64,000 nt of DNA, taken from contig OZ245797.1 of NCBI GenBank assembly GCA_965228195.1, positions 646,540 to 710,539 on the forward strand, in the 5' to 3' direction. Source of the DNA: Candidatus Cloacimonadales bacterium (GTDB taxonomy: Bacteria; Cloacimonadota; Cloacimonadia; G963667145). Below, piece by piece: positions 1 through 51,768 of this stretch. The position numbers and the translations under genes are program-made. The notes under the pieces were generated by a model. It worked only from the letters and a program-made list of their open reading frames with translations. It had not been told where the DNA came from and made no database searches. Positions within the stretch are counted from its first letter, which is position 1, and each line of letters starts with the position of its first letter.

Positions 1-324
1 CTGGGTCATCCTCTTGCGGACAAACCCCAAGGTGGCAACCTGCGATGCTCCGCGGGAGACAGCGTCGTTTCTGATAGCCGCACTGACATCCACCCCGTCC
101 AGCAAAATCGTCTCTCCGTTGTCGGCAAAGCTGATCTTCAGCGCTCCCACCACCTCTTGCAGCAAAAACGAATCTTCCAGCTCGATGCCCATCTTTTGCA
201 GCTTCAAGGCGCAAGCCCTATACATTGCCCCTGTGTCTATATAGTTGATGCCCAGGGCCTTCGCCACCAGCTTAGCAGTGGTGCTTTTCCCCGAGGCGGC
301 AGGTCCATCTATGGCGATTATCAT
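1..324 (-). CDS. cmk: cytidylate kinase, N-terminal part (gene continues past the window edge)
   Basis: Minus-strand translation from the ATG at 322-324 gives MIIAIDGPAASGKSTTAKLVAKALGINYIDTGAMYRACALKL..., with the P-loop GPAASGKST typical of Cmk. The start overlaps the upstream gene's stop as ATGA. The ORF-track + strand ORFs here are antisense artefacts. Confidence 0.85.
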   Translation of the reverse strand, partial: MIIAIDGPAASGKSTTAKLVAKALGINYIDTGAMYRACALKLQKMGIELEDSFLLQEVVGALKISFADNGETILLDGVDVSAAIRNDAVSRGASQVATLGFVRKRMTQ

Positions 325-2885: not shown

Positions 2886-3256
2886 GGGGGTGAAACTGGT
2901 TTAGACAGAGGTTTTAAGCGACTATCGGTGCATATCGGGCAATGTTTGGCAATCCCGTAAAACTGTTCCAAGCAAACTCAAAGTAGACGGAAACGATAAC
3001 TACGCAATGGCTGCCTAATTAAGGCGCCTGTCTCATCGAGAAGGTTTTTGACCACTTCTTGATAACCGAGGCATCATTTTTGGTCGAATCAGCAAAAGAG
3101 GTCGGTTTTCGCTTTTTTTGTGAAACTTTTTAGAAAGCTCGCCAGAGGATTTAGGTTGATTGTTCCCTTGCCTTTGGTTAAATTAAAACAACTAAGTATG
3201 TAGATCCGACAGCGGTTGACTTTTGGACGCGAGTTCGACTCTCGCCACCTCCACCA
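2886..3256 (+). ncRNA. ssrA: tmRNA (transfer-messenger RNA, SsrA)
   Basis: The 5' end GGGGGTGAAACTGGTTTAGACAG resembles the E. coli tmRNA 5' end. The 3' end carries a T-arm (gcgag-TTCGACT-ctcgc), the acceptor strand CACCTCC and CCA, and pairs with the 5' GGGGGTG. An internal tag ORF ...GAC GGA AAC GAT AAC TAC GCA ATG GCT GCC TAA encodes (D)GNDNYAMAA, resembling ANDENYALAA. Total length is 371 nt. Confidence 0.9.
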
Positions 3257-3286: not shown

Positions 3287-5937
3287 TGAAAATCAATCTA
3301 ACTATCGACGGGAAAAGTTACGTTGGTAAACAAGGGCAAACTGTTTTGGAAGTTTGCCGTGAGAACGACATCTTCGTGCCTACTTTTTGTCACGACCAAA
3401 GGCTAAAACCATACACATCTTGCTTCATCTGCATCGTGGAAGTAAAAGGCGACCGAGGCAAGTTCTCGCCATCTTGTTCCACCCAGATCCAAGAAGGTAT
3501 GGAGGTCACCACCGACTCTGATGAGATCAGATCAACTCGCAAGATGAATCTGGAGCTTTTGCTCTCTAACCACCTTGGCGATTGCTACGCCCCCTGCACG
3601 ATGGAGTGTCCCAGCACCGTAGATATTCCCGGCTACATCTCGATGATCTCCAGAGGGATGTACAAAGAGGCTGTGCGCCTGATAAGAGAAGAGAACCCTT
3701 TGCCGCTGGTGTGTGGCAGAGTTTGTGCTAGACCTTGCGAGGATGTTTGTCGCCGACACAACATCGACTCCGAGGTTGCTATCGATTGGCTAAAAAGGTT
3801 TGCCACCGATTACGAGCGTAGCCACGGCGGACCACTGCGCATCAACAAAGAGAACTCCACTGGCAAGAAGGTTGCCGTTATCGGCTCAGGACCAGGCGGA
3901 CTGGCTTGTGCCTACTATCTTTCCCTGCAAGGCCACTCTCCGGTAATTTTCGAGAAGTTACCTGAGCCGGGCGGAATGCTTCGTTACGGCATACCTGCCT
4001 ATCGGATGCCTCGTGATCTACTCAGAGAAGAGATCGACTACCTTTTGAGCTACGGCTCGGAACTTCGTTGCAACCAAGCTTTGGGCAAAGATTTTAGCAT
4101 CGCCGAGTTACAAAAAGATTACGACGCCATCTTCTTGGCTACCGGCGCTCAAAACGGCTCTTCGGCAAGAGCAGAGAACGAAGAGTTGGCACTGCAAGGT
4201 GTTGACTTTTTGCGAAAACTGAATTTGGGCGACGCTTACGATTTTGAAGGCAAGACCGTGGTGGTGCTGGGTGGTGGAAACACCGCTATCGACTGCGCTC
4301 GCTCATCTGTCCGTTTGGGAGCCAAGAAAGTTATCTTGGCTTATCGTAGAACCGAAAAAGAGATGCCGGCTGCCGACAACGAAATCGTCGATGCCAGAGA
4401 AGAAGGCATTCAGATCAAAGAGCTTTGCGCTCCGCAAAAATTTAACGGCGAGTCTGATAACCTCAAATCTATCACCTTAGATTTGATGAAGCTGGGCGAG
4501 CCCGACGACTCGGGCAGAAGAAGACCGGTAAAAACTGGCGAGCAAGAAGATCTGCTTTGCGATATCGCCATTGCCGCTATCGGACAAAAAGTTGACCCGA
4601 TCGGCTTAGACGGCGTAGATCTGGAAAGCTGGGGAACGATCAAATACGAGCAAAGTTTTGCTACCAATGTTGAGGGCATCTTCACCGGTGGCGACGCTGC
4701 CCGTGGTCCTGGTATAGCTATCCAAGCCATCGCCGATGGCAAACTAGCTGCCCGCTCGATCAACCAATACCTAAAAGGTGAGGCTGTCACAGCCAAAGAC
4801 GCTTACGACGATTTGGGCTTCTACATCAAAAGAAGCGACCTCCTTTCCAAGAAAGAGCTCAAAGAGTATCTATCCGACAGAGAGTCTTTGCCAAAGTGTG
4901 AAATGCCGATGATCGAACCCAAAGAGAGGGTGAAATCTTGGGACGAAGTAGAAAAAGGACTAGACCTGCAGACCGCCCTCAAAGAGGCTGAAAGATGCTT
5001 GGAGTGCGGATGCCAAGATGTTGGCGAGTGCAAACTCAAGAAATACGCCGAGATCTACTCTGCCGATTGCACCAGATTTAAAGGCGAGGTGGATATCAAC
5101 CCCACCGACCAATCTCACCCATATCTTGCCCACGACCCAGCCAAGTGCATCTTGTGCGGAAGTTGTGTGAGGATTTGCCAAGATCTAGAAGGCGTCAACG
5201 CCCTGGGCTACACCAACCGCGGCTTTGCCTCGATTGTTCAAACCGACTTCAACGACGGCTTCAAGCTCTCTCGCTGTATCGGCTGTGGCGCCTGTATAGA
5301 AGCTTGCCCGGTGGGAGCTTTGACCGAGAAAGTTACCAGCGGACACCAAGGTCCCTTAAAAGGCGAGATCGTCGCTGGCACTTGCCACGCTTGCGGAGAT
5401 GAGTGTGCTATCCAGATAGAGAAGATCGATAACACCATCGTCAAGGTAAGCGCCGACAAAGACAAAGGACTGGGTCTCATCTGTAAAAAAGGCAAATTTG
5501 CCTTCACCAGCGAACAAAAAGATGACCAGACTATTGACGACTCTTTGCGCCAAAAGTTAGCACTTTGCCAAGATTTAAAGACGATAAGCGGTGATGAGCT
5601 GAAGAGTCAAACCATCTTTTACCTAGGCTCAACCAGCGAAGAGTTCAACTCTGTCAGCCAAAGGGTGCTTTACCAAGGCAGCTACTATCTGTATCACACC
5701 CAACCTTCTTTCCTTGAGAAAAATGCACTTGCTTGCTTCACTGACCAAGACGAAATTTTGAAAAAAGCGGTCGCAGAAAAGGGTCTGGTAGTGGTTAATC
5801 CGGTGGCTTTTAGCAAAGATAAACTGCAAAATATCATCTCTGTTTGCCAAAAAAACAGTTTGCCGTTGAAACTGCAATCGCCCATCTCTAACTCACTGGA
5901 AAGATGTAACTTAAAACCATACAGCTTTGAAGCTTAA
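3287..5937 (+). CDS. multi-domain iron-sulfur flavoprotein with an N-terminal 2Fe-2S domain, a GltD-like domain and NuoG/Fdh-N-like FeS domains
   Basis: True start is MKINLTIDG at 3287, because the ORF-track 3223 start overlaps tmRNA. The N-terminus carries CxxxxC..CxxC motifs. The GltD region includes GSGPGGLACAY and a second Rossmann segment VVVLGGGNTAIDCA. HxxxCxxC, CILCGSCVRIC, CIGCGACIEAC and a C-terminal CHACGDEC follow. The C-terminal ~200 aa have no recognised motif. Confidence 0.8.
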
Positions 5938-9937: not shown

Positions 9938-12037
9938 ATGAGCGACATAAAAAAGATTTTCGGGCAAAAAGTTTTCAACCGATTTTCGGTGCGAAAAAGG
10001 TTGTCTGGCAAAGATTTCGAACAGTTTATTCTTTGCATAGAGAACAACTTGCGACTGCCAAAAGAGCTTGCCGACAAGATAGCCACCGCCATGAAAAATT
10101 GGGCGATAGAAAAAGGAGCCACCCATTACACCCACTGGTTTCAACCGCTGACTGGCTCCACTGCCGAAAAACACGACTCTTTCATCAATCCGACCAACAA
10201 AGGCAACAGCATCGAGCTCGAGCTCTCGGGAGCCGAACTGATCCAGGGCGAGCCTGACGCCTCTAGCTTCCCCTCAGGAGGACTGCGTAGCACCTTCGAG
10301 GCACGCGGTTACACCAGCTGGGACTACACCTCACCCGCTTTTCTCAAAGAAGACACCGCCGGGGTCACCTTGTGTATCCCCACCGCTTTTTGCTCCTACA
10401 ACGGAGAAGCTCTGGACAAAAAGACGCCACTGCTACGATCTATGCAGGCAATTAACAAACAAGCGACCCAGCTGCTGCACAAACTGGGATACCAAGATGT
10501 AAAAAAAGTGACCTCCAGCGTAGGTGCCGAGCAAGAGTATTTTTTGATAGACAAAAAATATTTTGCCAAAAGGCTAGATCTGATCACCTGCGGAAGAACA
10601 ATTTTTGGCGCAGACGCCCCCAAAGGGCAAGAGCTGGACGACCACTACTTCGGACAAATCAAAGACAGAGTTGCCAACTTTATGAAAGATTTGGATTATC
10701 GCCTCTGGGAGATGGGCATAACTGCCAAGTCGAAACACAACGAGGTGGCTCCCAGCCAGTTTGAGCTGGCGTCGGTCTATTGTCAAACCAACCTTGCTGC
10801 CGACCAAAACCAGCTGGTGATGGAGACGATGAAGAGAGTCGCCCTAAGGCACGATTTGGTCTGTTTGCTCCACGAGAAACCTTACCAAGGCGTCAACGGC
10901 TCGGGCAAACACAACAACTGGTCTTTGATCTCCGATACAGGCATCAACCTCTTTGAGCCGGGGGCAACACCCGAAAAAAACCAACTTTTCTTGGTTTTCT
11001 TGGTCGCCGCTCTCAAAGGGTTCGACAAACACGCCGACCTCTTGCGCGCCTCGGCTTCCAATCTGGGCAACGAATACCGTCTGGGTGGCAGCGAAGCTCC
11101 CCCGGCGATCATCTCCGTGTTTTTGGGAGAAGCGCTAACCCAAGTGCTAGAGAACATCGAGAAAGGAGTTAGCGTCATCAGCCCCAAAGGCAGCTTCTTG
11201 GAGCTGGGCGTGGACACCTTGAGCAAGATGCCCAAAGACAACACCGACAGAAACAGAACCTCGCCCCTGGCTTTTACGGGCAACAAGTTCGAGTTCCGCA
11301 TGGTGCCCTCCTCCACCTCCATCTCTATGCCCAATGTCGTCTTGAACGCCTTGATGGCACAAGAGCTCGCTAGCCTCAACCAGCGCCTTGGAGAGAGCCA
11401 AGATGTGACCAGCGAGATCTATAAATACTTGCAAGAGACTATCCCCCAAGTAAAAAGGGTTATCTTCAACGGCGACAACTACTCCAACGACTACCACCAA
11501 AGAGCCAAAGAGCTGGGGCTACCTTGCCTTGACAACACCGCTCAAGCTATCGCCGCTTATCAAACCAAGAAAGCAGAAGAGCTTTTTACCACCACGGGTA
11601 TCCTTACCTCACAAGAGCTAAACTCTCGCTCGGAGATCTATTACCAAAGATATTACAAGCAGGCCCTGATCGAGGCTCGCACCGCCAAGAAGATGATCAA
11701 CACCCAATACTTCCCGGCGATTATGAACTACATCGGCAAGTTGGCACGCTCCATAAAAGATCTGAGCCAGATTAAAAGCGAGCAAAAAATTCAGTCGGCT
11801 ATCTTGGAGAAGATCAACTCCCACTTTGCCAACGCCTACGAGAAACTAAGGAAGCTTTGTCTGACGATGGAAACGGTGAGCGTTGCCAAAACCGACCAAG
11901 AGAAGGCAGAGATTTGTGCGCAGAAGTTGAATCAAGATCTGAAAAAGTTACGCCAAGAGATCGACCAGATGGAAAATCTTCTGCCGGCAGACATATGGCC
12001 GGTGCCTTCTTACTGGCAGATGATGTTCAAACTGTAG
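9938..12037 (+). CDS. glnN: glutamine synthetase type III
   Basis: 699 aa, the typical GSIII length. The N-terminal FGQKVFNRFSVRKRL...WAIEKGATHYTHWFQPLTG region is conserved among GlnN proteins. Confidence 0.9.
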   Translation: MSDIKKIFGQKVFNRFSVRKRLSGKDFEQFILCIENNLRLPKELADKIATAMKNWAIEKGATHYTHWFQPLTGSTAEKHDSFINPTNKGNSIELELSGAELIQGEPDASSFPSGGLRSTFEARGYTSWDYTSPAFLKEDTAGVTLCIPTAFCSYNGEALDKKTPLLRSMQAINKQATQLLHKLGYQDVKKVTSSVGAEQEYFLIDKKYFAKRLDLITCGRTIFGADAPKGQELDDHYFGQIKDRVANFMKDLDYRLWEMGITAKSKHNEVAPSQFELASVYCQTNLAADQNQLVMETMKRVALRHDLVCLLHEKPYQGVNGSGKHNNWSLISDTGINLFEPGATPEKNQLFLVFLVAALKGFDKHADLLRASASNLGNEYRLGGSEAPPAIISVFLGEALTQVLENIEKGVSVISPKGSFLELGVDTLSKMPKDNTDRNRTSPLAFTGNKFEFRMVPSSTSISMPNVVLNALMAQELASLNQRLGESQDVTSEIYKYLQETIPQVKRVIFNGDNYSNDYHQRAKELGLPCLDNTAQAIAAYQTKKAEELFTTTGILTSQELNSRSEIYYQRYYKQALIEARTAKKMINTQYFPAIMNYIGKLARSIKDLSQIKSEQKIQSAILEKINSHFANAYEKLRKLCLTMETVSVAKTDQEKAEICAQKLNQDLKKLRQEIDQMENLLPADIWPVPSYWQMMFKL

Positions 12038-12044
12038 AGGTGTT

Positions 12045-12821
12045 ATGAGTTTTTCCAAAAAGAAGTTTGCCTCTTTTAGCCAGGAAAAACGAAGAAAAGA
12101 ACTTTTTTGTTTTTTACAAAAAATAGAAGAGCAGTGGACAGATGAGCAAAGCAAAGCCGAGTTAATCGATGAGTATCAAGCCCTATCACCTTTGGCAGAG
12201 CCTGAGTTTGCTAAGGTAGATTTCACCAGCAGACGCAGCCTCTGGCAAAGCTTGACTAAGCTGGAAACTTTACACCAGATTAGCAAAAGCGACTACCAAA
12301 TCTTGAGCCAAGATGGTAAAAAAAGCTACAACAATCACCAAGAGTTGCCGCTGGTTTTGATTTTGGACAACCTTCGCTCGGCTTTCAATGTGGGAGCGAT
12401 TTTGCGCACCGCCGAGTGTTTCAACATCGAGAAGGTCGCTTTTTGCGGAGTGACGCCCGACTTGCAAAACCAGAAAGTGAAAAAGACTTCGATGGGATGC
12501 TGGCAACACCTGAAGACGGAAAACTATAACAGCACCAGCCAAGCTATTGAAACTTACCGAAAACAAGGCTACGCCGTCTTTGCCCTGGAGACCACCACCG
12601 CCTCTTTGCCCCTGGCTACTGCCGAGTTTGAGCAGCCTACCGCTTTGGTGCTGGGCAACGAAGCTTTGGGGATCGACAAGCAAACTTTACTGCTGTGCGA
12701 CAAGATTTACCAGATCGAACTCGGCGGTTGGAAAAACTCACTCAATGTGGGAATTTGTTGTGGCATTGCCCTTTACCAGCTGAGTCAAAAAATAAGCGAA
12801 AAGAAAGTTTTAAACCAGTAG
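12045..12821 (+). CDS. TrmH/SpoU-family RNA 2'-O-methyltransferase (RlmB-like)
   Basis: The SPOUT motifs LVLILDNLRSAFNVGAILRTAE, LVLGNEALGI and ELGGWKNSLNVGICCGIALYQL are present. Confidence 0.8.
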   Translation: MSFSKKKFASFSQEKRRKELFCFLQKIEEQWTDEQSKAELIDEYQALSPLAEPEFAKVDFTSRRSLWQSLTKLETLHQISKSDYQILSQDGKKSYNNHQELPLVLILDNLRSAFNVGAILRTAECFNIEKVAFCGVTPDLQNQKVKKTSMGCWQHLKTENYNSTSQAIETYRKQGYAVFALETTTASLPLATAEFEQPTALVLGNEALGIDKQTLLLCDKIYQIELGGWKNSLNVGICCGIALYQLSQKISEKKVLNQ

Positions 12822-12830
12822 GTTAAGATT

Positions 12831-14063
12831 ATGTTAGAACCGAACCTAACCTTATTCATAAGATTTGTTTTGACCCTAGCCATCGGGCTTTTGGTGGGAG
12901 CAGAGCGCGAAATATCCAGACTGCACAAGAAAAATCGTCTGGCTTTGGGCATTCGCTCGACCACCTTGCTGTGCATCTTGGGATTTTTGTGCGGTGAGTT
13001 GCACCGACTAGGAGTCGGCTTCATCATCCCTTGTGGGCTTTTGGTCGCCTGCGCCATTGTCCTATTTAACCAACTGCAAAAAAACCGCAACAACACCTAC
13101 GGCTGGACAGGTAGCATCACCTGCCTTGTCTGTTACCTTCTGGGCGTGTTGATGGCTTTAGGCATCCTTTGGCTTGCGGTGGTAGCGTCTCTTACTGCCG
13201 TCTGTTTGCTCTCGCTCAAAAAAGAGCTACTCGATCAGATAAATGGCCTGAAGCACTACGAGGTCATCGACACCCTGAAGTTCTTGGTCATTAGCCTGAT
13301 TATCTATCCGCTACTACCGGACAAACCTTTTCAGCCTTACAACTTAAACCCAAAATCTATCTGGGAAGTGGTGGTTGTGGTCAGTTTGATCAGCTTTTCG
13401 GCTTACATCCTCATCAAGAAGTTCGGCACCAAACATGGACTGAACTTCAGCGCTTTTTTCGGCGGCTTCATCTCGGGCAACGCATCGACCATCTCTTTTG
13501 CCAAACTTTGTCAAAACCAAACTGTCTGCTCCCACAAACTCAGCTTGCGAGCCGCACTCTTGGCAGCCAGCGTCACCCACATCAGGATCGCCCTTTTCTT
13601 GTTCATCTTCAACCCCGGCCTTTTTTACCTGCTTTGGTGGAAGCTGCTGCTCTACTTCGCTTCGGGAATTGTGCTTTGCACCTTTTTGCAAGACAAAGAA
13701 AGCTTGCCACGAGTCTTACCGAGGTTTCATCCGCTGGAGCTACGGACTGCCCTGAACTTCGCCTTGATTTTCACCATCATCTCCATCCTCATCGAACATT
13801 TCAAATCGACTGCCGATGAGCTGGGGATGTTTATCTTATCTTTTTTCTCAGGAATAACCTCCTCCACGCCTTTCATCCTCTCCATCTCCAAGGAGTTTAC
13901 CGAATCTTCACCAGCCATAGGCAGATACATCTTGATCACCTTGGTTATCTCCACGACGATGAAAGGAATCTACTTTTATCTATTTAACCACCAAAACGGA
14001 AAGACCACTTTTTCGTTTTATTTTAGCTGGATTATCGTCCAAATAGGAGCTATCTTTGTCTGA
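12831..14063 (+). CDS. MgtC/SapB-family membrane protein with DUF4010-like C-terminal region
   Basis: The N-terminal AIGLLVGAERE is the MgtC signature. The protein is polytopic with about 10 TM helices. Confidence 0.65.
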   Translation: MLEPNLTLFIRFVLTLAIGLLVGAEREISRLHKKNRLALGIRSTTLLCILGFLCGELHRLGVGFIIPCGLLVACAIVLFNQLQKNRNNTYGWTGSITCLVCYLLGVLMALGILWLAVVASLTAVCLLSLKKELLDQINGLKHYEVIDTLKFLVISLIIYPLLPDKPFQPYNLNPKSIWEVVVVVSLISFSAYILIKKFGTKHGLNFSAFFGGFISGNASTISFAKLCQNQTVCSHKLSLRAALLAASVTHIRIALFLFIFNPGLFYLLWWKLLLYFASGIVLCTFLQDKESLPRVLPRFHPLELRTALNFALIFTIISILIEHFKSTADELGMFILSFFSGITSSTPFILSISKEFTESSPAIGRYILITLVISTTMKGIYFYLFNHQNGKTTFSFYFSWIIVQIGAIFV

Positions 14064-47510: not shown

Positions 47511-48293
47511 TTATTTTTTCTTGGCTCTCTCGAAGCTTTTTTTGATTTTGGCATTACCGCTCACACCCCAAGAGTCAACCTCGGCGTTTATTTGCTCGTT
47601 CTTTTCAAAAACCGATTTGCTCAGCACCTCGACGATGTGACCATCTTTGGTTTTACTCAACTCACAGAAAATCTTGGTAAAAATCTCTGCATCTAGCTTG
47701 GCTATCTTCTTGAACAGATCGACGAAAAATTTGTCGGTAACCTCACCGCCTTCACTGATAAGCCCAGAGAGTTGCGCAAAACAAGTTTCGATCAGCTCCG
47801 GATTTTTCTTGAAGCCACTGCCCAAAACGGTGAGCAAGCTTTTGTTTATCTCTTCTTGCTCTTTTTGTGCCAACATCACAATCGTGTCTATGCCTTTAGC
47901 CACATCTTTTTTCAAGGCAGGAGCGACGATCTTCTTGATCATCAAACTCAAAATCTCGCCATGAGCTTTCTCTAGGTAAGGCACCACCGTCTGCTGATAA
48001 AAATCACCATTTTTTTTGACCACCTCGGCAAAAACGATGACCAAGATAGCTTTGCCCTCTTTACCCAATTTGCTCCAAAGATAGTCAAAAAAGTCAGGAA
48101 CAAGCAAATCTCCAGCTTTAGCCACTCGCTTACCGATATACTCCAGCACCTCTAGCGGCACCATTCCCTCGTCCCTGATTGGATAAATTCTATAAATCAC
48201 CCCTACATCATAATCTGCCTGAGGCAACCTCTGATCGATGAAGAACTTTACATCCTTATCAAATCTACCTTTCCAATCAATATTTATCATCAA
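47511..48293 (-). CDS. hypothetical protein (possibly HEAT-like)
   Basis: 260 aa, predicted helical. No confident family assignment. Confidence 0.45.
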   Translation of the reverse strand: MMINIDWKGRFDKDVKFFIDQRLPQADYDVGVIYRIYPIRDEGMVPLEVLEYIGKRVAKAGDLLVPDFFDYLWSKLGKEGKAILVIVFAEVVKKNGDFYQQTVVPYLEKAHGEILSLMIKKIVAPALKKDVAKGIDTIVMLAQKEQEEINKSLLTVLGSGFKKNPELIETCFAQLSGLISEGGEVTDKFFVDLFKKIAKLDAEIFTKIFCELSKTKDGHIVEVLSKSVFEKNEQINAEVDSWGVSGNAKIKKSFERAKKK

Positions 48294-48296
48294 TAC

Positions 48297-48494
48297 CTAC
48301 TTCAAAAGATCTTTTTCGTTACACTTGCAGACAGACTCAATCACATAACTAGGTGACCATCCACCCTTAGCAGAAATCTTCGCTCTGATCATCTTTACTT
48401 GCTTAATCTCGCTATTGCACACAGGACAAATCACTTTGCCAGCACCTTTAGATTCGTGAGCAAGTTTTGCGCCTGAACTTCTTCCTCCAGCCAT
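48297..48494 (-). CDS. small zinc-ribbon protein (hypothetical)
   Basis: 65 aa with CPVC...CKC. Confidence 0.35.
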   Translation of the reverse strand: MAGGRSSGAKLAHESKGAGKVICPVCNSEIKQVKMIRAKISAKGGWSPSYVIESVCKCNEKDLLK

Positions 48495-48516: not shown

Positions 48517-49365
48517 TTAATTGTTATCTAAAAATTGCAACATCCTCTGACGAGAAGAAGACACCGCATCTACTTTGTTATAAACTGCCAAAACCTCTGC
48601 GGCGATAGACACTGCTATCTGCGCCGTGGTCGTCTTGGCAACATTCAGCCCAATGGGGCTATAAAATTTTTGCAAGAAAGGGTCGCCTTTCTTAATCTGC
48701 AGCTTCTCCAAGAAGCCTGCAACTTTGCGGGCTGAGCCGATCAAACCAAAATAGCGCCCACTGAAACCTTGCTCATAGATTTTGCCCAAAATCTCGTAAT
48801 CGAAAGAGTGACCGTGGGTAAACACGGCTACGGCGTCTTCGGCTTGCGGAGTCCAACTGTCCAAAAACTGCAAATAATCTTGGCAAACAACCTGACCCAC
48901 CTCAGGAAATCTGTCTTTGGTGGCAAAATCAGGGCGATTGTCAACTGCCACCAACCTGAAGCCAAGCGTGTTCAAGATAGGAGAGAGCGACTGGCACAGA
49001 TGCCCGCAACCAAACATATAAAAAGTTCGCACCGCAGGGAAATGTTCAAAGAAAACCTTTACCTTGCCTCCACAGCCCATATTCATCTGCTCTTCGGTAA
49101 GCTCAAAATCTGCCAAACAGTTCTCTTGGGAGAGCAAAGTTCTGGCACAGATTTTTAGGGAGTCGAACTCCAAACCTCCACCACCCAAAGTCCCCTTGGT
49201 TGTGCCGTCTGGATAGTAAATCAACTTGAAACCAGCGCGTCCTGGAGAGCCGCTGGCACCTTCTACAATCGTTGCCAACACAAACTCCCTGCCTTGGGAT
49301 TTTGCCTTGCTAGCCTCTTGTAAAATATCGATTTGATTCACTTTTTCACACCTTTTTTTCACCAA
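48517..49365 (-). CDS. XdhC/CoxI-family molybdenum-hydroxylase accessory protein
   Basis: An N-terminal XdhC_CoxI-like region and a C-terminal Rossmann region (MFGCGHL...) are present. Confidence 0.7.
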   Translation of the reverse strand: MVKKRCEKVNQIDILQEASKAKSQGREFVLATIVEGASGSPGRAGFKLIYYPDGTTKGTLGGGGLEFDSLKICARTLLSQENCLADFELTEEQMNMGCGGKVKVFFEHFPAVRTFYMFGCGHLCQSLSPILNTLGFRLVAVDNRPDFATKDRFPEVGQVVCQDYLQFLDSWTPQAEDAVAVFTHGHSFDYEILGKIYEQGFSGRYFGLIGSARKVAGFLEKLQIKKGDPFLQKFYSPIGLNVAKTTTAQIAVSIAAEVLAVYNKVDAVSSSRQRMLQFLDNN

Positions 49366-49450
49366 TTTTCTTCAAAAAAAAAGGCGTTGGCGTTCTGTCA
49401 ATCGGAAATCGGTTTTTTCGTGTTTTTCAGGGGCTTTTGAACTCTCTTTG

Positions 49451-49969
49451 CTAATAATAGCTTCTATTTTCAGTTAAAACATCCAAATCTGTATTTTTAA
49501 AATCTTTGTCGTTTGTCCACAACACAAAAGATTTCTCTCGACACAGTTGGAAGATTCCTTTATCGTTAAAATCCAGCTCATCCACTATCAAACAATCTTC
49601 TACACTTTGTTTATCAAATATTTTTCCTGTCATCTTGAAAATATCCAAAATCTCAGCCTTTACAACCGTATAAACACTTTTCAAAAAAGTTTGACCTTTT
49701 GAGCTACTCCGAAACTTCTTATAACTATCTTTGTTTTTCAATCTCTCTTTCTCAATCCTTGTGACGGTGTTTACAAACTCCGAGAGAACTAAGAAACTAA
49801 CAAACAGCTGGTTACCTTGATGCAAAAGCTTCTTGAATGTAGCGGCATAAGCGTTTTCCCAATACACCGACCCTGTTGGCCAAAACAGATAGATAAGAAC
49901 ATTAGCATCAACAAATATTGGTCTATTTTTTAATTTTTCGATTGTTTTAGAAGAGAACTTAACACTCAT
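49451..49969 (-). CDS. PIN-domain nuclease (VapC-like)
   Basis: IFVDANVLIY (Asp), VLSEFVN (Glu) and LWTNDKDF (Asp) are the three PIN acidic motifs. The region is AT-rich. Confidence 0.75.
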   Translation of the reverse strand: MSVKFSSKTIEKLKNRPIFVDANVLIYLFWPTGSVYWENAYAATFKKLLHQGNQLFVSFLVLSEFVNTVTRIEKERLKNKDSYKKFRSSSKGQTFLKSVYTVVKAEILDIFKMTGKIFDKQSVEDCLIVDELDFNDKGIFQLCREKSFVLWTNDKDFKNTDLDVLTENRSYY

Positions 49970-49973
49970 AAAC

Positions 49974-50321
49974 TTAGTCTTCTAAAATCTTTTCGACACT
50001 TTTTCTAAGAGTGTCTGGATCTTTGTAGTAAAGCTTAGCCGTATCCACAACCCTTTTTAAAGAGAGCTTTCCCGAGTCCGAGATATCCACCGCTTCAAGA
50101 TGACCTCTGATATAATCTTCGGTAAAATCTTTATACAACTGACCGATAGCCGTGTTTAAAAAAGCGGTTGTGAGCATCTTCACATTTTGAAAAGATAAGG
50201 TTACTTTTTTATCGTCTTTAAAAGATTTTTTGATTAGCTCAAAGATTTTTTGTCCATCTTCAGCCTCTACACCGTAAACATCACCAATTGCGTTCACTAT
50301 ACTTATTTTATTGTTTTCCAT
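49974..50321 (-). CDS. small STAS-like protein (DUF4325-like), putative partner-switch antagonist
   Basis: 115 aa. VTLSFQNVKMLTTAFLNTAIGQLY matches the DUF4325/STAS-like core as I recall it. A 4-nt gap separates it from the PIN gene and a 3-nt gap from the ATPase gene. Confidence 0.5.
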   Translation of the reverse strand: MENNKISIVNAIGDVYGVEAEDGQKIFELIKKSFKDDKKVTLSFQNVKMLTTAFLNTAIGQLYKDFTEDYIRGHLEAVDISDSGKLSLKRVVDTAKLYYKDPDTLRKSVEKILED

Positions 50322-50324
50322 AAT

Positions 50325-51185
50325 TTAAAAAATCTCATCCATATTTATTTCATTTCCCAAAGAGTAACTGCTACTATCGTCTGTTTTAAACTGAAGATTT
50401 ACGATCGTTCCGGGAAAGCTTCCCCTGAATAACATCTTCTTTTCCTCTTTGGCTTCATATTGGTAAAATCCATCACCGCTGACAATCTGCATCTTCCCAC
50501 TATTTTTGTCAATAAATTCTCGGAGTAACGCCAAACCTATTCCACCTGGGATATCTTTAGTGGTCATCCTATCCTTGACTGCCCAACTTATGGCGTCTAT
50601 AGAGCTAATATTGCGACCGAACCTCTTTTTTATCTTTCTCTTAAATCCAATGCCCATATCAACGATAGTAAACTCAATCTTGTGTTTGTTAGGAAAAAAC
50701 TGTCCACAGGTATAAATATAATCTGTTTCGCTATGAATTTGGGCATTAACAAAAATCTCATAAATCGCCTCTACTATTTTTTCTTTAACCCCTTTTGACA
50801 TTCGCGGAAGATCTGTGTTGTGTCCCTCAATGAACTCTTCAACCACATATTGCTTAAAATATTTACCATCGGTTTTTTTTAATTTTTGGTACTTTATGGT
50901 CGTATTATTAACATCTAAAGCCCGTTGCAAACCGTAATAAGTCAAAAAATCGTTTTTACTCAAAACAGTTTTGACATCTTTTTTACTAAAAATAAACCTA
51001 ATGCTATTAACATTATCTGTGAAACGGTCTAAAATAGCACCCAAAACGGAGCTCATATTGGCTGCAAAAAAATTTCTTATCTCTAAGCTTATTTCAGAAA
51101 AATGCTTATTTTTATTCTCCTGATAAAGATCGATAAGAGCTTGAAAACTCTCATACGAATTGTTTATAATCGGCAATGCTCTCAT
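50325..51185 (-). CDS. GHKL/HATPase_c-family ATPase (anti-sigma-factor-kinase-like) with novel N-terminal domain
   Basis: N-box EAIYEIFVNAQIHSE, G1 VDMGIGF, G2 GGIGLALL. The N-terminal ~130 aa have no recognised motif. Confidence 0.7.
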   Translation of the reverse strand: MRALPIINNSYESFQALIDLYQENKNKHFSEISLEIRNFFAANMSSVLGAILDRFTDNVNSIRFIFSKKDVKTVLSKNDFLTYYGLQRALDVNNTTIKYQKLKKTDGKYFKQYVVEEFIEGHNTDLPRMSKGVKEKIVEAIYEIFVNAQIHSETDYIYTCGQFFPNKHKIEFTIVDMGIGFKRKIKKRFGRNISSIDAISWAVKDRMTTKDIPGGIGLALLREFIDKNSGKMQIVSGDGFYQYEAKEEKKMLFRGSFPGTIVNLQFKTDDSSSYSLGNEINMDEIF

Positions 51186-51240
51186 CTTGATCTCCCGTTA
51201 CAGATTAAACAAGCAAGATTTTTGTCCCTGAAAGGCTAGG

Positions 51241-51768
51241 TTAGCCTTGCTCCACCACTCTGCCCAGATAAGGCAAGTTGCGGTGGTTTTGGGCGTAGTC
51301 GATGCCGTAGCCCACCACGAACTCATCTGTTATCTGAAAGCCGACATAATCGACTGGGATCTCCACCAAGCGCCGCTCTGGCTTGTCCAGAAGAGTGCAG
51401 ATAGACAAGGAGGCTGGTTTGCGCAGGCGCAAGATCTTGGCAACTTTGTCTAAGGTGTAGCCGGTGTCGATGATATCTTCGACGATCAAGACATCTTTGC
51501 CCTCGATCTTCTCTTCCAGATCTTTGAGGATCTTCACATCCCGCGAAGACTCCATCTGGTCGGCGTAGCTGGAGACCACCATAAAGTCTATCTTGGAGTC
51601 CAAAGATATTTCCCTGACCAAGTCTGCCAAAAAAATCACCGAACCGCGCAAAAGCCCTACCATCACTAGCTCTCTTCCTTGATGGTCTTGGCTGATTTTT
51701 TGCCCCAGCTCTCTCACCTTTTTTGCCAACTCTTCTTTGCTGATCATCTGCTCAATCTTGTATTTCAT
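51241..51768 (-). CDS. hpt: hypoxanthine phosphoribosyltransferase
   Basis: The PRPP loop [14 protein letters not shown] and the HPRT family pattern are present. Confidence 0.9.

Follow-up and report, generated by a model that had tools for sequence, protein, structure and literature searches.

The question raised by this locus is whether three tightly packed genes on the minus strand, which the earlier note had read as a toxin or defence module unmatched to any named system, are indeed something new. The window analysed here is a stretch of 64,000 nucleotides from contig OZ245797.1 of a Candidatus Cloacimonadales bacterium. We find that the three genes very probably form a vapKSC operon, that is, a toxin-antitoxin and anti-phage module of three components under the control of a kinase. 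This system has been described and partly characterised by Chambers, Rani, Min, Villa & Corbett (EMBO J 2026; PMC13373217; PDB 9Z7O), with the operon of Escherichia sp. E4736 as reference; in it, a serine kinase of STAS + GHKL architecture (VapK) is combined with a STAS antitoxin (VapS) and a PIN toxin (VapC) (PMC13373217). The claim of novelty thus fails, because the trio corresponds to a system that already has a name, which is the very outcome that the note itself had given as refuting it.

Layout of the locus and identity of its products

The three open reading frames, all starting with ATG on the minus strand, were recovered exactly where the earlier note had placed them and at the lengths it gave: vapK (50325..51185, 286 aa), which would encode the STAS + GHKL serine kinase and proposed sensor activated by single-stranded DNA (ssDNA); vapS (49974..50321, 115 aa), for the STAS (DUF4325) antitoxin with its C-terminal helix; and vapC (49451..49969, 172 aa), for the PIN-domain toxin. 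Their tight packing is confirmed, with gaps of 3 nt (AAT) between vapK and vapS and of 4 nt (AAAC) between vapS and vapC, and the genes follow one another on a single strand as kinase, STAS protein and PIN protein, which is the order of a VapKSC operon. The flanking genes are also those named before, hpt (51241-51768) on the vapK side and an xdhC-like gene (48517-49365) on the vapC side. The locus is surrounded by housekeeping genes and is not part of a defence island. A spacer of 55 nt (51186..51240, minus strand) separates the stop codon of hpt from the start of vapK; it contains an SD-like GGGAG, located 7-11 nt upstream of the vapK ATG, and our scan found in it no recognisable sigma-70 promoter upstream of vapK. 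A terminator scan of 49300-51400 found none, and transcriptional read-through from hpt into vapK is possible.

VapS consists of a single STAS domain together with a short C-terminal stretch, as expected of a VapKSC antitoxin. The Pfam DUF4325 model scores 62 bits on it (cut-off 23), and a phmmer search of the PDB returned as sole match 9Z7O_A, 'Escherichia VapS' (E 1.8e-15, residues 3-114), with no match to the CapS entries 9Z71-9Z73; the protein is thus STAS-like and of DUF4325 type, as had been proposed from the sequence. BLASTP against Escherichia VapS gives 39% identity (E 2e-21). With the numbering offset of 18 in the 9Z7O chain confirmed from its DBREF record, VapS T52 (codon 50166-50168) aligns with S48, the phospho-acceptor of Escherichia VapS, and this column holds S or T in 7/7 sequences. 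T52 is the predicted phospho-acceptor, and the adjoining T51 makes the exact acceptor ambiguous.

VapK has an N-terminal STAS-fold domain (50811..51185, minus strand, residues ~1-125) followed by a GHKL kinase domain (50382..50795, minus strand, residues ~131-268). Sequence methods do not reveal the STAS domain. Pfam HATPase_c reaches 21 bits, under its cut-off; the kinase boxes are complete (N-box E143/N147/H151, G1 D176-G178-G180 and G2 G214-G215-G217-L218, codon positions verified) and invariant in alignments A2, A3 and A6, and the fold is confirmed as GHKL, in agreement with the original call of a GHKL ATP-binding core. The alignment with Escherichia VapK runs from end to end (E 1e-22, 23% identity) with the ATP-binding boxes intact. 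Within the STAS-fold domain a conserved aromatic residue, F39 (codon 51069-51071, minus strand), is equivalent to F54 of Escherichia VapK and to W68 of CapK; the column that it shares with F54 is F or W in 7/7 diverse VapKs. An exact-sequence lookup gave no record for VapK, while records exist for VapC and VapS.

The structure model of VapK opens directly with STAS beta-alpha units and shows no N-terminal HTH, a point that bears on whether the first two genes could be a transcriptional regulator pair of the CapK/CapS type, controlling an adjacent operon. CapKS and VapKS are homologous families that share the architecture of a STAS + GHKL kinase with a STAS substrate (PMC13373217). The window kinase, however, is devoid of the HTH, the 115-aa STAS protein has no wHTH and matches VapS rather than CapS 9Z71-9Z73, and the downstream xdhC is native, since it is syntenic in relatives without the insert. 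As neither the HTH, nor the wHTH, nor an immune operon is present, this reading is effectively refuted and keeps only a vanishing probability.

The assignment of the third protein as a PIN nuclease with all its catalytic acidic motifs also stands. The Pfam PIN model scores 36.8 bits (cut-off 23.6), and D21, E64, D133, D136, D154 and D156 are invariant across relatives and match D28, E74 and the Mg ligands D151, D154, D173 and D175 of Escherichia VapC. A Foldseek search with the structure model (pLDDT 94.9) against a PDB library that ends in April 2026, and thus does not include 9Z7O, gave VapC toxins as top matches (PAE2754, Rickettsia VapC2, and Shigella and M. tuberculosis VapCs). The direct link to Escherichia VapC is more difficult to see, at ~20% identity: phmmer with the window VapC as single sequence found no VapC match in the PDB even at E ≤ 10, the narrow profile A1, made of close PIN relatives, found spurious weak matches only, and hhalign of A1 with Escherichia VapC was collinear but weak (probability 15%). 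The matter was settled only after diverse VapCs had been added, in profile A7, which was built without the Escherichia sequence and for which 9Z7O_C is the sole match in the whole PDB (E 9.4e-31). A transitive bridge of full-length homology is also provided by the VapC of D. gobiensis, matched in BLASTP by the window VapC at E 3e-13 and itself matching Escherichia VapC at E 2e-11. A classical VapBC type II toxin-antitoxin pair was considered and rejected, in line with the opinion of the earlier note: the upstream gene encodes a DUF4325/STAS protein and not a DNA-binding VapB, and the TIGR00028 VapC model gives the PIN protein 18 bits against a cut-off of 73.6.

Judged on sequence, the trio possesses all the defining features of VapKSC, and the three initial domain calls (GHKL, STAS-like, PIN) were correct. 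The searches also illustrate why annotation tools miss vapKSC. PADLOC-DB v2.0.0 (2023), which predates the system and has no model for it, gave no significant system match, its weak partial matches being DrmA on the ATPase domain (16 bits) and PDC-M07B on the PIN protein (14 bits), with none on VapS; NCBIfam assigned no meaningful family to the trio; and, as seen above, HATPase_c stays below threshold and the STAS domain of the kinase goes unseen.

Acquisition and distribution of the operon

The vapKSC operon is the sole cargo of a segment of ~1.8 kb (49440..51252, unstranded) whose GC content is 34.5%, as compared to 46.5% elsewhere in the window (z = -4.1), and lies below that of all 1,171 windows of equal size. 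Here again, the GC3 of the trio (~0.35) is distinct from that of the neighbouring genes (0.51-0.68). Synteny in blastn with two relatives (L034 and L035) is lost at 51253 and regained at 49427-49439. Three relatives (L034, L039 and L041) have no insert between hpt and xdhC, two (L035 and L040) have other cargo in this slot, and one relative carries SoFic there. Given the low GC, the break in synteny and the empty or otherwise filled slot in relatives, the segment has been horizontally acquired into a variable hpt–xdhC slot; both the AT-richness that the earlier note had judged by eye and the acquisition that it had suspected are thus borne out. No recombinase was found at the segment, and a search for direct or inverted repeats at its flanks gave nothing convincing. 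The locus offers a clean example of the states before and after an acquisition, and the slot, empty in three relatives and carrying SoFic in another, is marked as a hotspot of defence genes.

The co-occurrence of the three genes in other genomes is strict in all complete loci. The K-S-C order is kept in 28 of 31 genome loci, the remaining 3 being cut by contig ends, and in 14 of 16 viral contigs, the remaining 2 also being cut, which makes 28/28 and 14/14 among complete loci; in none of these 42 complete loci is the K-S pair joined by an effector other than a PIN protein. The invariant trio is carried by a large, mostly Bacteroidota clade, to which the window copy belongs, and by at least 16 viral contigs; in prophages it adjoins integrases and sits at the prophage ends. 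The VapK of the Marinilabilia salmonicolor locus is 67% identical to that of the window, and this species is listed, together with D. gobiensis I-0, in the published vapKSC catalogue (PMC13373217). In phage Javan172 the VapC gene is unannotated.

Some copies in relatives are decaying, with VapK frameshifted in L029, VapK and VapC truncated in L032 and VapC split in L045, which may suggest that the window copy is also an inactive remnant of a transferred module. Its open reading frames are nevertheless all full length, and the catalytic, phospho-acceptor and ssDNA-site residues are intact, so that we consider such a remnant very unlikely.

Proposed mechanism and role

The mechanism that we propose is transferred, step by step, by homology from vapKSC of Escherichia sp. 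E4736. For this homolog, the toxicity of VapC, the antitoxin activity of VapS and the 2:2 structure have been shown, a phospho-mimic VapS loses VapC binding, and phage protection needs D28, S48 and F54, whereas direct VapK kinase activity and activation by ssDNA were proposed from AlphaFold 3 models and mutant phenotypes only, Escherichia VapK being insoluble (PMC13373217). At rest, VapS would bind VapC as a 2:2 complex in which the C-terminal helix of VapS would block the active site of VapC. Phage infection or DNA damage would generate ssDNA, and its binding at F39, in the groove that the STAS and GHKL domains of VapK form between them, would make the kinase active. VapK would then phosphorylate VapS on the STAS threonine T52, which is predicted to lie within the VapS-VapC interface, so that phosphorylation would release VapS. 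The free VapC would cleave RNA, probably rRNA or tRNA, leading to growth arrest. We infer, as did the authors of the original paper, the direct kinase activity of VapK, its activation by ssDNA and the RNA target. The target or the trigger could differ from those of Escherichia, because VapK (23% identity) and VapC (~20%) are distant and the direct VapC links are weak. One might speculate further that the Bacteroidota-type clade has diverged in function, its VapC cleaving another RNA or its kinase responding to something other than ssDNA; this is suggested by the low identity of VapC, by the Thr-Thr acceptor and by a VapC 30 aa shorter than in Escherichia, but we think it rather unlikely. Co-transcription with hpt, if true, would couple the release of the toxin to the nucleotide metabolism of the host, whose genome is reduced.

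The wiring of this mechanism differs from the one first proposed for the locus. That a GHKL serine kinase and a STAS partner control a PIN nuclease in a toxin or defence module holds, but the classical partner-switch wiring does not, since, according to the published model, the toxin is bound and inhibited by the STAS protein, which in turn is inactivated by the kinase, and the effector is not sequestered by the kinase. In a partner switch of the SpoIIAB/SpoIIAA or RsbW/RsbV type, it would be the kinase that captures the effector, be it a sigma factor or another protein. Such a module calls for a kinase fold and a STAS phospho-site, both of which are present here, but neither a sigma factor nor a PP2C phosphatase is encoded in the 1.8-kb insert, the third gene is invariably a PIN nuclease, and in the crystal structure it is the STAS protein, not the kinase, that binds the effector (PMC13373217). 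A module of this type is highly improbable.

Another interpretation retains the whole molecular mechanism and changes its role, the trio being a general growth-arrest module for DNA damage or stress, or an addiction module, and not dedicated phage defence. We take this possibility seriously without favouring it. The authors of the vapKSC paper call the line between stress response and immunity blurred, they found protection against one phage only, and 64% of the catalogued instances have no nearby defence gene, against 36% that are near known ones (PMC13373217). The position of the window locus amid housekeeping genes points in the same direction, as does co-transcription with hpt, which is possible because no terminator was found in the region scanned. 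On the other hand, the Escherichia homolog gives ~2-log protection against phage Bas42 (PMC13373217), SoFic occupies the same slot in a relative, and the location of the trio at prophage ends and in 16 viral contigs is typical of defence cargo. We thus retain the reading of the trio as a toxin-antitoxin and anti-phage module. Since the 2026 publication already covers this type of system, with its structure and a proposed mechanism, the result has little importance beyond annotation; it does extend the range of vapKSC to an uncultured, small-genome lineage, whose position near Cloacimonadota is indicated by a single marker gene.

Comparison with known systems

The linkage of PIN and DUF4325 genes was recorded in 2017 as subfamily PIN.4 (Matelska et al., PMC5499597), and it is by this described linkage that we liken the two; the kinase was not noted there and no mechanism was proposed. 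With SpoIIAB/SpoIIAA and RsbW/RsbV the differences are that the window kinase carries its own fused STAS domain and that the STAS protein would hold the effector. In common with VapBC, the trio has a VapC-like PIN nuclease as toxin, which a small protein, the product of the upstream gene, would neutralise by binding to it directly, but the antitoxin has a STAS fold instead of being a DNA-binding VapB, and its release is proposed to follow phosphorylation by a dedicated kinase, encoded by a third gene, and not proteolysis of the antitoxin. CapK/CapS, from CBASS, Bub and Thoeris operons (PMC13373217), is similar in that its kinase, a homologue with STAS + GHKL domains, acts by phosphorylating a protein with a STAS domain and that an aromatic residue is the proposed ssDNA sensor. 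The additional N-terminal HTH of CapK is absent from the window trio, as is a CapS-like wHTH transcriptional repressor that binds no toxin.

VapKSC itself is a family whose members occur across many phyla, on chromosomes and plasmids and in prophages. The proteins of the window have diverged far from those that have been characterised (23% identity for VapK, 39% for VapS and ~20% for VapC), the acceptor is a threonine of the T51-T52 pair where the reference has a serine, VapC is 172 aa long against 203 aa, and the copy belongs to the mostly Bacteroidota clade and resides in an uncultured, small-genome host that is absent from the published list. The features in common are (i) the gene order kinase, STAS, PIN with tight packing, (ii) a VapK made of STAS and GHKL domains with no HTH, (iii) a VapS of ~115 aa that has the conserved S/T and ends in a C-terminal helix, (iv) a PIN-domain VapC with acidic residues at six identical positions and (v) an aromatic residue at the proposed ssDNA site.

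Identity of the operon

Three minus-strand ORFs, each with an ATG start, encode VapK (50325-51185, 286 aa), VapS (49974-50321, 115 aa) and VapC (49451-49969, 172 aa); gaps of 3 nt (AAT) and then 4 nt (AAAC) separate them, and the trio is flanked by hpt (51241-51768) on one side and by an XdhC-family gene (48517-49365) on the other, exactly as the earlier note had placed it. Its STAS-like and PIN assignments were borne out by Pfam, with DUF4325 ("STAS-like") at 62 bits in the 115-aa protein and PIN at 36.8 bits (cut-off 23.6) in the 172-aa protein; in the 286-aa protein HATPase_c (21 bits) and HATPase_c_2 (20 bits) were both sub-threshold.

The earlier note knew of no named system to which this trio belonged. 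A match to a named system was among the outcomes that the note itself had set down as refuting, and this one occurred. The trio matches vapKSC, which is already named, structurally solved and partly characterised, a three-gene operon defined by Chambers, Rani, Min, Villa and Corbett (EMBO J 2026, PMC13373217; bioRxiv February 2026). In that work, VapK is a CapK-like kinase with STAS and GHKL domains, VapS a STAS protein that has a short stretch at its C-terminus, and VapC a PIN protein, and 289 instances were catalogued in IMG. VapC of Escherichia sp. E4736 is toxic, its D28A mutant is not, and VapS neutralises the toxin in a 2:2 complex (PDB 9Z7O); the C-terminal helix of VapS, which extends to the VapC active site, is needed, and the S48E phospho-mimic loses both binding and rescue (PMC13373217). 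Against phage Bas42 the E4736 operon protects by about 2 logs, an effect lost with VapC D28A, VapS S48A or VapK F54A, each alone, and the kinase activity of VapK and its activation by ssDNA were inferred from AlphaFold 3 models and the homologous CapK (PMC13373217). Judged by this published system, the functional guess made for the kinase, STAS and PIN proteins was a good one.

Reference sequences were taken from the supplementary files of that paper (VapK residues 1-286, VapS and VapC SEQRES, and the Mg-ligand list). The sole phmmer match of the window VapS in all PDB sequences is 9Z7O_A, "Escherichia VapS" (E 1.8e-15, residues 3-114; BLASTP 39% identity, E 2e-21). With the 18-residue tag offset (DBREF -17..116) taken into account, T52 of the window aligns with Escherichia S48, a column that is S or T throughout an alignment of seven sequences drawn from Escherichia, Deinococcus, a Streptococcus prophage, Bacteroidota and a Caenarcaniphilales MAG. 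VapK matches Escherichia VapK over 275/286 residues (BLASTP 23% identity, E 1e-22), and its F39 aligns with Escherichia F54 in a column that is invariably F or W. The GHKL kinase reading stands, and the N-terminal domain described as unrecognised is, given this match and the F39/F54 alignment, most likely the STAS domain of the published VapK (PMC13373217). This domain escapes sequence methods: the N-terminus had no match in a Pfam search, and its hhalign probability against the VapS family was 0.2%.

VapC was the only component to fail the initial membership search. By phmmer the window VapC had no match in the PDB, even at E ≤ 10, a profile of its close relatives did not retrieve Escherichia VapC from the PDB either, and hhalign between the two gave a collinear alignment in which every motif was in register, yet a statistically weak one (E 0.0017, probability 15%). 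The bridge comes from Deinococcus gobiensis I-0, whose genome is among those in Dataset EV3 (PMC13373217): its VapC sits in a K-S-C trio on plasmid P5 and matches, over its full length, both the window VapC (E 3e-13) and Escherichia VapC (E 2e-11). In the multiple alignment D21, N23, E64, D133, D136, D154 and D156 are invariant, so the catalytic acidic motifs are indeed complete, and the acidic positions of the window protein are equivalent to D28 and E74 of Escherichia VapC and to its four Mg ligands, D151, D154, D173 and D175. A profile of the window VapC and 15 diverse trio-encoded PINs, from which the Escherichia sequence was excluded, gave one match among 177,635 PDB sequences, namely 9Z7O_C, "Escherichia VapC" (E 9.4e-31, 2-177 against 9-192), and no further PIN or VapC structure at E ≤ 0.1. 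The bridge, the shared invariant residues and the selectivity of this profile together show that the trio-linked PINs form one coherent subfamily holding both proteins. The AlphaFold2 model of the window VapC (pLDDT 94.9) has a VapC-type PIN fold.

The slot between hpt and xdhC

The named matches to the window's IspG, at 60-66% identity, begin "Candidatus Clo…" and "Candidatus Sty…"; the former, taken as Cloacimonadota, gives the genome a tentative place by this one marker. Close relatives, on contigs of 1.54-1.58 Mb against 1.56 Mb for that of the window, share its gene order but differ in what stands between hpt and xdhC. This slot is empty, with hpt directly beside xdhC, in three relatives (L034, L039, L041); it holds two unrelated genes in L040 (3584-4963; a 277-aa product without Pfam domain and a 136-aa Nitro_FeMo-Co family protein), a Fic-domain gene scoring as the defence system SoFic in L035 (2545-3648; PADLOC E 7.9e-113), and vapKSC in the window (49440-51252). 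In the window's lineage this stretch between the two genes is a hotspot of variation. The blastn synteny breaks, at 51253 and 49427-49439, delimit a window-specific segment of about 49440-51252, of which the trio is the only content; no flanking repeats, recombinase or tRNA were found at it. The AT-richness first noticed by eye was confirmed: GC is 34.5% in the trio segment against 46.5% in the remaining window (z = -4.1), below every one of 1,171 same-size windows, and GC3, at about 0.35, falls below the 0.51-0.68 of adjoining genes. Of 776 detectable VapK homologs, the best 120 show 62-70% identity and a length of about 287 aa, the named entries within these 120 being mostly Bacteroidota. 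Low GC and such relatives suggest a donor in the Bacteroidota or a similar group.

Other features of the region deserve mention. In L041, SduA_C (Shedu-like), ion-channel and AAA_14/DUF4143 genes lie just past the acyltransferase gene (10660-13604), perhaps another variable defence slot of the lineage. The second-lowest GC patch of the window (about 650-2850, GC about 0.37) sits directly upstream of the gene for tmRNA (2886-3256), a classic site of island integration, and contains a 151-aa DUF4429 and SHOCT ORF (1669-2124) without a match in PADLOC. Between ispG and xdhC, minus-strand ORFs of 260 aa (47511-48293) and 65 aa (48297-48494; Cys-rich, CPVC…CKC), both without a match in Pfam, hold their place in every relative examined (L034, L039, L040, L041).

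Distribution and mode of action

The three genes travel together, as co-occurrence in other genomes confirmed. Among species-representative genomes 28 of 31 loci have K-S-C in the same order, the remaining 3 ending at a contig edge, and the trio is complete in 14 of 16 viral contigs of IMG/VR, the other 2 being cut off; none of the loci examined joined K and S to a third gene other than PIN. A linkage of PIN and DUF4325 genes had been noted by Matelska et al. in 2017, as subfamily PIN.4 (PMC5499597). The published catalogue (PMC13373217) includes Marinilabilia salmonicolor strain 160A, and VapK of the same species (JCM 21150, L003) is 67% identical to that of the window, so that the window's clade is almost certainly catalogued already.

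In Streptococcus prophage Javan172 (MK448860.1, L037) the trio lies between a repressor/ImmA-like (XRE/ImmA-like) pair and the integrase; its full vapKSC is completed by a 176-aa, TTG-initiated VapC-type PIN ORF (4113-4643) that immediately follows the gene for the VapS-like protein and is absent from the GenBank annotation. The unannotated record of UNVERIFIED Bacteriophage sp. MT837343.1 from human faeces (L038, 1420-3192) encodes a complete trio of K, S and PIN proteins of 290, 125 and 188 aa, and some 1.5 kb downstream lies a gene for a serine recombinase. Francisella prophage vB_FhiM_KIRK encodes a 293-aa hypothetical protein and then a 112-aa DUF4325 protein (Fhv_0046/Fhv_0047), adjoined by a CI repressor and integrase, and the sizes suggest a VapK/VapS-like pair; the next gene encodes a 125-aa transmembrane protein and no PIN (PMC7924643), and tblastn with the window VapK gave no match to the pair. 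VapS and VapC of the window are also encoded on a 13.2-kb metagenome contig (ENA ERZ25074352 ctg19120, L002), which resembles a fold-back assembly artefact, with GcpE, TPR and 259-aa genes present twice in inverted orientation. Decaying copies also occur, with VapK split by a frameshift (L029, 4157-4885), VapK and VapC truncated (L032, 6001-7243) or VapC broken into two ORFs (L045, 5215-5774).

We consider it very probable, by homology, that the window trio is a VapKSC module working as published. VapS would keep VapC inactive until VapK, activated by ssDNA that phage infection or DNA damage produces, phosphorylates VapS at T52; phosphorylated VapS would dissociate, leaving VapC to cleave RNA. 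We infer every one of these steps in the window copy by homology, and all residues required for each are present. The chief alternative, a general DNA-damage growth-arrest module as opposed to dedicated phage defence, would differ in role, not in mechanism; the two roles are compatible, and we hold this one to be rather unlikely. Four further readings were rejected after each was compared with the features that define it: a CapKS regulator, a classical partner switch, a classical VapBC pair and a decayed remnant.

With a VapKSC module as the preferred reading, the remaining novelty is modest: the clade is distant, the acceptor is Thr-Thr, the insertion into a defence hotspot is clean, and current annotation tools have gaps. 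Two GIY-YIG nuclease genes lie near vapK on D. gobiensis plasmid P5 (L036), where a gene for an HTH transcriptional regulator (3456-3917) stands directly upstream of vapK on the same strand. No such regulator accompanies the window copy.
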